Shown: positions 23,063 through 24,841, numbered from the stretch's first letter. The stretch: 64,000 bases of DNA from Escherichia phage vB_EcoM_VR26 (NC_028957.1), one strand, 5' to 3'. Numbers and translations: made by a program. The notes: generated by a model from the sequence alone, not told the origin.

Positions 23063-23431
23063 TTATGCGACTTTAATCCAATTATCTAAATTTAATTCAC
23101 CCTTAGCTTTCATTTTTTCAATCAGAAGGTCTGCAGTGGTGCGACCATTTTGATACCATGTAACATCTTCAGAATAACCAGTTTCTTCATCTTCATAGGT
23201 CTTACAACGAATCTTACCAAGAATCAAAGTTTTCAGTTCGTAGGTATCACCAGTAAAAAAGTTTGTTACCAAAATTTTCCAGGAGAAGTCATCAGAAGGA
23301 CCTTCAGGAGTCATGCAACCAACAAATTCAAACTGTTCTTTATGCAAGTGCCATTGGAGTTCTTTAGTTTCAATGGCTTTATAACCGTCGTGGTCTTTAC
23401 CTTTGATGTATGAGTTAAGATTGATTTTCAT
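23063..23431 (-). CDS. hypothetical protein
   Basis: 122-aa ORF directly downstream of an early promoter. Confidence 0.55.
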   Translation of the reverse strand: MKINLNSYIKGKDHDGYKAIETKELQWHLHKEQFEFVGCMTPEGPSDDFSWKILVTNFFTGDTYELKTLILGKIRCKTYEDEETGYSEDVTWYQNGRTTADLLIEKMKAKGELNLDNWIKVA

Positions 23432-23472
23432 TTTATTCTCCAGTGTTTTATTGTGTAACTCAGTATGGAATC

Positions 23473-23502
23473 ATTATGCACTGGTCAAACCCTGTTGTAA
23501 AC
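23473..23502 (-). promoter_or_regulatory. T4-type early promoter (GTTTAC–18 nt–CATAAT)
   Basis: Minus strand GTTTACaacagggtttgaccagtgCATAATgattccatactgagttacac; shares the 22-nt taactcagtatggaatcattat cassette found at three other sites. Confidence 0.5.
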
Positions 23503-23514
23503 CTTTTTATGGAA

Positions 23515-23540
23515 ATAAAAAAGGGACTCCGAAGAGTCCC
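23515..23540 (-). terminator. rho-independent terminator (gggactc-cgaa-gagtccc + U run on minus strand)
   Basis: 7-bp stem; on the minus strand the hairpin is followed by TTTTTTAT; located 6 nt after the stop of the 53-aa ORF. Confidence 0.6.
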
Positions 23541-23545
23541 TGAAC

Positions 23546-23707
23546 TTATGCTTTCGGCTTACCAAAGCAAGCTGCATCGGCACGCAATACCGCACGAGCA
23601 CGAGCCTGAAGTTTATCAGTCACCTGATTGATTCGCTTGTTGGACGCACGCTTGTAACCAGCGCGTTTGGAGGAGCCATCAACAACTTTAACTTCTTTCT
23701 TAGCCAT
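23546..23707 (-). CDS. small basic protein (53 aa)
   Basis: Manually translated: MAKKEVKVVDGSSKRAGYKRASNKRINQVTDKLQARARAVLRADAACFGKPKA; below ORF-track cutoff; followed by strong terminator. Confidence 0.4.
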   Translation of the reverse strand: MAKKEVKVVDGSSKRAGYKRASNKRINQVTDKLQARARAVLRADAACFGKPKA

Positions 23708-24105
23708 ATTAAATTCTCTTTAAAATAGAATGCAGGACTTATTGACATTGCCCGCGCAAGCCCTCGAAGGGAACATTAGGTTTCGGATATTTAACGGCAG
23801 GATAACCATAAACCTCGCCATCATACCTTATAGCTCTTATCTGTTGCACACCGTTAGCTTAAAGGTTCCGGGTTCGATTACTCGAGGATAAGATATATAC
23901 TGATGGATATATAGGCCTTGAGGCGTACTCCCGATTGGCCATCACCTCGGGGTAGCATGCACTTGCCGCTATAAAATAACATTCAAGAGGTACACCATAA
24001 AACTGCCGAGGTCTTAAAACTATAATGATTCGCAAATCATTAATCAGACAGTTCGATGGCTCCTCGATTTTCTAGCCGCACTTAAGGTAGCGAATCACCT
24101 AAAAC

Positions 24106-24360
24106 TTACTTCAGAGTAACGACAAAATGGCGAACAGCTTTGCGAGCTGCAGATGCCAGCGGCTTAGCAAATTTCAGTTCATCTTTAGCTTCGAGCACAG
24201 CGCGAAGGTCGGTTTGTACCGGGTTAAGATGTTTGAAATACTGCAGAATTTCCAGTGCTTCGGCTTCAACATCAATAGATGCGCCGTAGTTTTCGTGACC
24301 GTTATTCCATGCAGTGCGTTGCAGTTCAAGAGCGTGTTGTAATTGTTTGTTTAAAGACAT
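24106..24360 (-). CDS. rIII: rIII lysis-inhibition accessory protein
   Basis: Internal start MSLNKQLQHALELQRTAWNNGHENYGASIDVEAEALEILQYFKHLNP…KAVRHFVVTLK matches T4 rIII as recalled; GAGG SD upstream of this ATG. Confidence 0.8.
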   Translation of the reverse strand: MSLNKQLQHALELQRTAWNNGHENYGASIDVEAEALEILQYFKHLNPVQTDLRAVLEAKDELKFAKPLASAARKAVRHFVVTLK

Positions 24361-24500
24361 TTTAGAAGCCTCAATATGAGGTGAATATTTGGTGGACACG
24401 TTCTTCTGAATTTCACTTCCTTTCGGCAAGTCTCTCAGTTGTAGTCCACCGTTTAGGATTCTCCGGGTAACTAACTGGTCCGGCAGCCAATCCATATTAT

Positions 24501-24508
24501 TATTTATA
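24501..24508 (-). promoter_or_regulatory. late promoter motif TATAAATA (minus strand) upstream of rIII
   Basis: + strand TATTTATA = minus TATAAATA, ~140 nt upstream of rIII ATG. Confidence 0.4.
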
Positions 24509-24517
24509 ACGCTAATT

Positions 24518-24841
24518 TTACTTATAAAGGCAAGGAACAGCTTTATAATGACAGGTCACAAATTTCTGCTTAACTTCTTTAGCCTGCTTAAGTCCCAAGG
24601 CAACCAGAGGATGTGGAACGTTTGCAATCTTGCCAACCGGAAGAGGAGTCAAATCACCTACTTCACAGAAGCCTTCAGGAACATCTGAACCAATCGAAAA
24701 TACTTCACACATCTCGGGAATTTCACCCTGATGAAGTTTTCCGATAACGATACCTGATGCCGTAGTTTCTTCGTCACCAGCTTGCTTTGGCTCAGAAACC
24801 AAAATAATATATTCACCTACTGCTTTAATTGGTAATTCCAT
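24518..24841 (-). CDS. 31: co-chaperonin gp31 (GroES analogue for capsid protein folding)
   Basis: …[32 protein letters not shown]…[26 protein letters not shown]…[15 protein letters not shown] matches T4 gp31 as recalled; start at second ATG. Confidence 0.85.

Follow-up and report, generated by a model that had tools for sequence, protein, structure and literature searches.

A ToxI-like unit and a covarying structured RNA between genes rIII and 30.9 of the T4-like Escherichia phage vB_EcoM_VR26

Phage-borne antitoxin-like RNAs and the rIII–30.9 gap

[quoted passage not shown] Phages encode structured RNAs as well; RNA C and RNA D of T4 (rnaC and rnaD, ~120–140 nt) lie inside the tRNA array. 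ToxN is freed when the phage shuts off host transcription and ToxI decays (cited in PMC10853763 and PMC9391042), and additional ToxI-like RNA made by a phage suppresses the toxin (PMC3475682). The only published phage mimic of ToxI that we found is the pseudo-ToxI of PhiTE. One over-expressed pseudo-ToxI repeat failed to neutralise ToxN and escape of PhiTE needed expansion of the repeats (PMC3475682). T4 is restricted by plasmid-borne toxIN and relies on the protein TifA; the publications on the interplay of T4 with ToxIN deal with this protein and contain no mention of an RNA from the rIII–30.9 locus (PMC9391042, PMC10853763). A review from 2010 remarked that T4 was still without a characterised riboswitch or trans-acting small RNA (PMC3014915).

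The window analysed here is a stretch of 64,000 nucleotides of phage vB_EcoM_VR26 (NC_028957.1), a T4-like phage which groups with SP18 and VR7 (Gaprivervirus) with 96–98% identity across the region. On the minus strand the local gene order is cd, 31.2, 31.1, 31, rIII, gap, gp30.9, terminator and gene 30.8. The gap extends from the stop codon of rIII to the start of gp30.9 and comprises 398 bp (23708–24105), with everything on the minus strand. Upstream lies rIII (24106–24360, minus strand) for the lysis inhibition accessory protein, assigned by PHROG 1457 (E=2.4e-42) and by the annotations of relatives. When read from an ATG further upstream, its reading frame comprises 129 codons (24106–24495, minus strand), and SP18 is annotated with this long version, which is probably an annotation artefact; the 84-aa version starting at 24360 (MSLNKQ...) fits most relatives and the PHROG profile. 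Downstream lies gp30.9 (23546–23707, minus strand), a basic protein of 53 aa recognised by PHROG 1427 (E=2.9e-26) and the annotation of SP18, for which no Pfam family was matched. A strong intrinsic terminator (23522–23541, minus strand) 3′ of 30.9 closes the unit of rIII, the gap and 30.9. It is the sole terminator-like site in 23300–24600, and a terminator is annotated at the equivalent place in NBG1, NBG2, and Merlin. As the same scan revealed neither a promoter-like nor a terminator-like site within the gap, its RNAs would most simply be co-transcribed with rIII and 30.9.

The initial annotation, made from the sequence alone, had described the interval as a comparatively GC-rich non-coding island of ~400 bp. 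Its non-coding character is confirmed, as all open reading frames inside the gap are short (≤58 aa), none of them matches a PHROG family, and no frame is conserved. The elevation in GC content is only marginal, with 0.405–0.45 in the gap versus 0.29–0.47 in the flanks (200-bp windows). The folding energy of the whole gap does not surpass that of shuffled sequence (z = −0.31 on the minus strand and −0.14 on the plus strand). Taken alone, composition and thermodynamics do not mark the region as special. ARAGORN found no tRNA or tmRNA in the window, and Rfam 15 gave no match in the gap, neither at the gathering score nor at E≤10. The interval is matched in ~1000 phage records by blastn; in T4 the gap between rIII and 30.9 measures 244 bp. 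When the minus strands of relatives are aligned, blocks of the gap are present, absent or reordered independently of each other. The interval had been taken as a single element but is composed of at least four modules, each with its own distribution; they are here called A1, A2, B, and C in the direction of transcription. We found no prior description of A1 or B in T4-like phages in the literature, within a coverage that includes subscription journals in part.

The ToxI-like unit A1 and its relatives

Module A1 (24070–24104, minus strand) is a single 36-nt ToxI-like unit, UUUUAGGUGAUUCGCUACCUUAAGUGCGGCUAGAA, identified by a covariance model and by blastn. The covariance model R2 was built from plasmid ToxI repeats alone (E. 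coli pTA113-2 and P. atrosepticum pPA21A) and finds on the 64-kb window this single site with 53 bits (E=3.7e-11); the runner-up scores 10.9 bits, and there is no second ToxI-like unit elsewhere in the window. In a blastn comparison of the gap with complete E. coli genomes and plasmids the matches are confined to nucleotides 1–44 of the gap, while the rest of the gap including B yields no match even at E≤10. Nearly all matches to A1 are on plasmids, usually several per record, and represent tandem arrays that immediately precede annotated ToxN/AbiQ toxin genes. Plasmid pTA113-2 contains 5.6 copies of AGGTGATTTGCTACCTTTAAGTGCAGCTAGAAATTT and pPA21A 13 copies of AGGTGATTCGCTACCTT(T)AAGTGCGGGACGAAAATCC; the second repeat type is also present in the E. 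coli IncX4 plasmid pU90-1 and in a Lelliottia plasmid. Since Rfam misses a genuine ToxI array as well, its silence is uninformative for A1.

Compared to the canonical E. coli unit, A1 has the changes U9C and A25G, UU instead of UUU, and one additional A at the 3′ end. The U9C/A25G pair has been described as compensatory in the pseudoknot (Blower 2012, PMC3475682), and C27 and U28, both required for antitoxin activity of ToxI (PMC3475682), are retained. From the second natural ToxI cluster (pU90-1, pPA21A, Lelliottia) A1 differs at nucleotides 27–29 only. The sequence AAUCG follows A1 at 24069–24065, which gives a 3′ junction GAAAAUC identical to the junction of the pPA21A and pU90-1 arrays. 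By inspection of a small sample, the pair U9–A25 is replaced by C9–G25 in A1 and G10–C24 by A10–U24 in the allele found in T4 (stem of nucleotides 8–11 with 23–26), and GGU/ACC is kept in A1. A1 thus has in common with bacterial ToxI arrays the unit of 36–37 nt, the backbone, the stem of nucleotides 8–11 and 23–26, and the potential for the GGU/ACC pseudoknot. Judged from these sequence features, the identity of A1 as a ToxI homologue is solid.

Unlike the bacterial arrays, A1 is present as a single copy, as it is in the other T4-like records among the matches listed. It has rIII and gp30.9 rather than toxN as neighbours and has no dedicated promoter or terminator. In addition, the 5′ side of A1 reads UAAGUUUUAGG and contains neither AAAU nor GAAAU. 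As ToxN cleaves at the motif GAAAU (AA^AU; PMC8860590), ToxN alone would probably not release the 36-nt unit.

Without a tandem array and without an adjacent toxN gene, A1 is best filed with the pseudo-ToxI of PhiTE. Both are orphan ToxI-like sequences in lytic phages devoid of toxN and both are oriented in the sense of local transcription (PMC3475682), which for A1 is the direction of rIII and 30.9. In addition, both have the U9C/A25G pair, UU in place of UUU, and the extra 3′ A. Nevertheless, there are clear differences. A1 lies between two genes, rIII and 30.9, of a T4-like phage, whereas PhiTE is an rV5-like phage; A1 is one full unit, whereas PhiTE has 1.5 out-of-phase repeats; A1 has C27 and U28, whereas PhiTE has G27 and A28; and A1 is embedded among other structured RNA modules, unlike the pseudo-ToxI. 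For PhiTE escape by copy-number expansion has been demonstrated, whereas A1 is known here from its sequence. A1 is therefore best regarded as the same kind of element in a new host group, at a new locus, and with a more canonical sequence. With TifA, A1 has in common the presumed target ToxIN and the occurrence in T4-like phages (PMC9391042, PMC10853763), but TifA is a protein whose gene neighbours dmd, and the element in the gap is an RNA. We also considered gp30.9 as a TifA-like ToxN inhibitor and found no similarity.

A second allele of A1 is present at the equivalent position in T4, SP18, NBG2, and S16 and in the corresponding block of phi92; its stem is kept through changed pairs. In T4 this allele is degenerate and scores 6.5 bits with the strict model. 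The near-canonical form is found in the source phage, VR5, and pEC-M719, although the close relative SP18 has the T4 type, and the occurrence of different alleles in very close relatives suggests allelic replacement. Thus a near-canonical ToxI unit occupies a fixed and conserved locus in the best-studied phage family, of which T4 itself holds a degenerate allele.

ToxI-like units are found in other phages as well; a query of two ToxI units matched 248 phage records. Grimontviridae, T5-like, and Certrevirus phages have one to three ToxI-like units each. SE131 (Grimontviridae) has an exact single ToxI unit between two protein genes, with AAAU on both flanks and a terminator behind it, and FH3 has a similar single unit. 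In T5-like and Certrevirus phages the units lie inside tRNA arrays on the tRNA strand: two in the T5-like pKMKP103 and three in the PhiTE-like Certrevirus DU_PP_I, here between tRNA-Gly and tRNA-Gln. The rV5-like phage phi92 has a T4-type A1, A2, and C block between tRNA-Gly and tRNA-Gln, again on the tRNA strand. With representatives in Grimontviridae, T5-like, and rV5-like phages, mimicry of antitoxin RNA may be common and extend beyond PhiTE as the single described phage.

The phi92 block (L006 2407–2837, minus strand) looks like a captured, circularly permuted copy of the T4 rIII–30.9 locus. Its gp113, annotated as ‘putative rIII’, is a chimeric ORF of 42 aa in which the start region of 30.9 is fused to the last 26 codons of rIII. 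The site of capture is where PhiTE-like phages carry their ToxI repeats. A further observation concerns the pPA21A cluster (L068 1497–1972; also L076 and L077), whose 13 repeats of 36–37 nt have G27, A28, and the extra A. These changes match position by position those of the ‘inactive’ pseudo-ToxI of PhiTE, so that the PhiTE mimic may be an antitoxin of the cognate type, directed at a second lineage of ToxN, and not a defective copy.

Module B and the mosaic of the gap

Module B (23835–23969, minus strand) is a multi-helix RNA of 135 nt, delimited with RNAalifold and by covariation. In the RNAalifold structure the predicted and invariant helix P0 joins the downstream GCC to the 5′ GGC and closes P1, a helix of 10 bp that contains a bulged A; P2 forms a hairpin; and P3 closes P4, a hairpin with a GNRA loop (GAAA or GUAA), and P5, whose stem of 5 bp carries a conserved loop of ~22 nt, GAACCUUUAAGCUAA. 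Two additional pairings were discarded: a pseudoknot of GGCC in the P1 loop with the downstream GGCC is not retained in EcS1 or K41P2, and a GGU/ACC-type pseudoknot within B has zero covariation.

Seventeen sequences were aligned independently with MAFFT; in this alignment, 96.8% of the cells at paired positions are paired and 14 of the 39 pairs are changed on both sides, compared to 5.6 in shuffled alignments (a value reached in none of 500) and at most 5 pairs in slid controls. An alignment of 24 distinct sequences, which was guided by the model and for this reason leans towards it, has 98.9% paired cells and 24 of 39 compensatory pairs, versus at most 7 in slid controls. Moreover, ~53 G–U cells stand against ~10 non-standard cells, which points to an RNA on the minus strand. 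Across the B homologues no reading frame stays open. On this comparative evidence B is shown to be a real structured RNA which is kept by selection on its fold, and the functional strand of the gap is the minus strand.

A structured non-coding RNA had been among the candidates proposed for the interval and is backed by this strong and strand-specific covariation: the comparison with related phages reveals a conserved, co-varying RNA on the minus strand. Not all of the smaller features that had been pointed out fare equally well. The inverted repeat ccctcgaaggg (23761–23771) is a genuine conserved hairpin, C2 of module C. The repeat ggccttgagg/cctcgggg does lie inside B, but covariation backs the pairing CCCCGA/UCGGG and not GAGG/CCUC. 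The proposed helix gattcgc…gcgaatc would link the apex of the A2 hairpin to the ToxI-like unit and has zero covariation support. Finally, the T-loop-like GGTTCGATT is complementary to the 3′ side of helix P4, where the bases co-vary with their partners; the resemblance to a tRNA is fortuitous and lies on the wrong strand.

B matches no described RNA family, as even at E≤10 no Rfam family was hit. The covariance model R1 of B identifies one copy on the window (163.7 bits; next 12 bits) and no second copy elsewhere in it. An anchored pattern of B had zero matches in bacteria, with one genome per species scanned. Among known phage RNAs, rnaC and rnaD of T4 are similar to B in size, and the A1, A2, and C block of phi92 as well as PhiTE- and T5-like ToxI units are also placed in tRNA arrays. 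Nevertheless, blastn gave only chance matches of 8–15 nt between rnaC or rnaD and the gap, R1 found nothing in the T4 tRNA region, and the genomic position is different, the window having no tRNA genes. B belongs to the best-supported unannotated RNA structures conceivable in a T4-like genome, and it is a concrete candidate where neither a riboswitch nor a trans-acting small RNA had been characterised for T4 (PMC3014915).

B is present in 405 phage records from many genera. In Klebsiella phages it is ~94% identical although the flanks cannot be aligned, and divergent copies are found in Karamvirus, a Serratia phage, EcS1, and Slopekvirus. In Slopekvirus B occupies another locus downstream of uvsY.-2 and is missing at the corresponding site of KP15. 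PKM.Lu.22.1, a phage of 76 kb from the Grimontviridae, has B inserted just ahead of a ToxI-like unit and a terminator, whereas SE131, whose flanking genes correspond to those of PKM.Lu.22.1 (81% protein identity), has the ToxI unit alone without B. The copy in PKM.Lu.22.1 implies that B is mobile across phage families. A metagenome scan for B returned mostly chance matches and a few extra Klebsiella-phage copies; the IMG/VR match L018 was rejected as a high-GC chance match.

Next to ToxI-like units B occurs in three arrangements: A1-A2-B in the source phage, A1-B in Klebsiella phages, and B-A1-terminator in PKM.Lu.22.1. On the other hand, it is found without a nearby ToxI-like unit in Moonvirus, Karamvirus, and EcS1, and in Slopekvirus at the different locus, so that the link between B and ToxIN is circumstantial only. 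Most B variants have ToxI words in common, namely AAGUGCA, UGCUACC, AGGUGAU, and ACCUUUAAG. The variants contain three to seven ToxI 7-mers, enriched in 15 of 17 (p 0.0007–0.05 versus dinucleotide shuffles), with no shared 7-mers in the B copies of EnC15 and EcS1; noticed after the fact, this enrichment is a lead and not evidence of function.

Module A2 (23987–24065, minus strand) is predicted by MFE folding as an extended hairpin of 79 nt, GAGG...CCUC, with an apical stem–loop AAUGAUU-UGCG-AAUCAUU. Among close relatives RNAalifold reveals two compensatory pairs, GCCAU/AUGGU versus GCCGU/ACGGU and CUGUC/GGCAG versus UUGUC/GGCAA. A2 is found in T4, phi92, SP18, and NBG2, is shortened in S16, and is absent in Merlin, the Klebsiella phages, and NBG1. 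Module C (23708–23834, minus strand) consists of three hairpins and runs into the ribosome-binding site of 30.9. In C1 (23796–23819, minus strand) GAC/GUC versus GGC/GCC is compensatory; C2 (23761–23771, minus strand), CCC-UUCGA-GGG, is almost invariant; and in C3 (23732–23755, minus strand) GCAGG/CCUGC is replaced in a compensatory way by GAACUGG/CCAGUUC in S16. C is kept in all T4-like relatives examined and is the most invariant part of the gap. Ending in the ribosome-binding site of 30.9, it may also serve as a leader.

The modules are arranged differently from phage to phage. The order A1-A2-B-C of the source phage compares to A1-A2-C in T4 and phi92, B-C′ in Merlin, C1′-A1-B-C2 in Klebsiella Jiaodavirus, and C2-B-C1′ in EnC15 (Karamvirus), while in NBG1 (Mosigvirus) C is preceded by a short stretch that cannot be aligned to A or B. 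Several minor observations belong here. A C2-type hairpin, GUACCC-(4–5 nt)-GGGGCUUG, is encountered repeatedly in the non-coding DNA of many T4-like genomes (L004, L019, L021, L033, L067), in several genera often directly before or after B, and also in the uvsY–uvsW gap of Slopekvirus. In EnC15 it is followed by TTGACA. The idea that the C2 hairpin and CTTG form an early or middle promoter (PeSL) was given up, as the spacing of the hexamers does not fit in the source phage and in T4. In the Slopekvirus K41P2 the divergent B (L033 1102–1240; L064 803–943; compare L067 for KP15) is part of a non-coding stretch of ~300 nt between uvsY.-2 and a bidirectional terminator before uvsW.1. Other conserved hairpins are present in this stretch, which thus resembles a second region of non-coding RNA.

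Possible roles of the gap RNAs

In our reading the gap is probably an RNA counter-defence locus which would share a transcript with rIII and 30.9 and in which A1 would serve as a ToxN decoy in the manner of the PhiTE pseudo-ToxI. The rIII–30.9 message from the minus strand would include the RNA modules and would end at the terminator after 30.9. During infection the shut-off of host transcription by the phage would lead to decay of the unstable host ToxI and thus liberate ToxN; the phage transcript would supply a look-alike RNA; and this RNA would occupy ToxN, so that cleavage of phage RNA would be delayed or prevented. Given that both the release of ToxN and its suppression by phage-made ToxI-like RNA have been published, a ToxN decoy appears by analogy as the most likely role of A1. 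B might be a second decoy or a companion RNA in the same locus, which we treat as a working guess, and A2 and C might be stabilising or leader hairpins. The single copy, the missing 5′ cleavage site, the failure of a single PhiTE repeat, and the sensitivity of T4 all speak against a strong activity of A1. In a weaker version of the proposal A1 would be a poised locus that expands or recombines under selection. As the arms race between T4 and ToxIN has so far been explained by TifA alone, an RNA decoy would be a testable addition.

A further-reaching form of this proposal is conceivable, if doubtful: the gap would be a counter-defence island made of RNA only, and B a class of mobile decoy RNA directed against variants of ToxN or other RNA-dependent defences, acting alone or with a ToxI-like unit. 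It goes with the equally tentative notion that B moves from one phage family to another, unrelated one and is preferentially inserted next to ToxI-like units.

It is also possible, but on balance we rather doubt it, that B and perhaps A2 and C have an RNA function unrelated to ToxIN, for example, as a ribozyme, as an aptamer for a ligand or protein, or as a stable RNA like RNA C and RNA D of T4, and B would then be located here only because the gap tolerates insertions. Many unpaired junction and loop nucleotides of B are invariant (GGCAAGNGCAUG, AUGGCCUAU, GCUAACNGUGUGCAAC), a feature typical of catalytic or ligand- and protein-binding RNAs, and this reading would equally accommodate the occurrence of B without a ToxI-like unit in several genera, its placement downstream of uvsY.-2 in Slopekvirus, and its lack of a counterpart in bacteria and plasmids. 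On the contrary, B resembles neither an Rfam family nor rnaC and rnaD, and it both adjoins ToxI-like units repeatedly and is enriched in ToxI 7-mers.

We consider it unlikely that A1 is a relic which an ancestral phage captured from a toxIN plasmid and which now is neutral filler or part of the 3′ untranslated region of rIII or of the 30.9 leader; the equally improbable corollary is that the region would just stabilise the mRNA or tune translation of 30.9. The allele of T4 is indeed badly diverged and T4 is sensitive to ToxIN without TifA (PMC9391042). The solitary A1 with its missing 5′ cleavage site, a gap devoid of promoter and terminator, and the highly conserved C leading directly into the ribosome-binding site of 30.9 would all suit a passive element. 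However, in the source phage A1 is near-canonical, has kept its pseudoknot pairs by compensatory changes, and retains C27 and U28, and the distribution of the alleles, with the T4 type in SP18 and the near-canonical type in the source phage, VR5, and pEC-M719, looks like ongoing replacement and not like decay. Moreover, ToxI-like units recur in unrelated phage families at highly transcribed places, and A1, A2, and B are found without 30.9 downstream in phi92, PKM.Lu.22.1, and K41P2.

An element acting at the level of DNA, that is, a replication origin, a packaging site, a recombination hotspot, or a degenerate intron or homing-endonuclease gene, is very unlikely. The initial annotation had offered an intron or homing-element remnant and a replication or packaging cis element as candidates, and in fact the shuffling of modules between genomes and the seemingly permuted copy in phi92 indicate recombination at or near these sequences. 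However, the pairing in B tolerates G–U and not A–C, so that selection acts on one RNA strand and not on DNA; no Rfam intron family and no remnant of an endonuclease is found in the gap; and the composition profile has no skew switch there. In the T4 record oriA is annotated inside gene 56 (L078, position 764), far from rIII, which is consistent with the rIII–30.9 gap not being among the known replication origins of T4.

That the gap encodes one or more very small proteins is hardly credible, since, despite the two or three ‘hypothetical proteins’ or the ‘1,4-alpha-glucan branching enzyme’ that some GenBank records have across it, its ORFs match no PHROG family, all frames of B contain stop codons whose number and position vary between homologues, B has indels of 1, 2, 4, and 7 nt, and substitutions in B occur as base-paired couples. 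The protein annotations over the RNA modules are almost certainly spurious, and the assignment of the gap to RNA corrects the many GenBank records which place such small proteins there.
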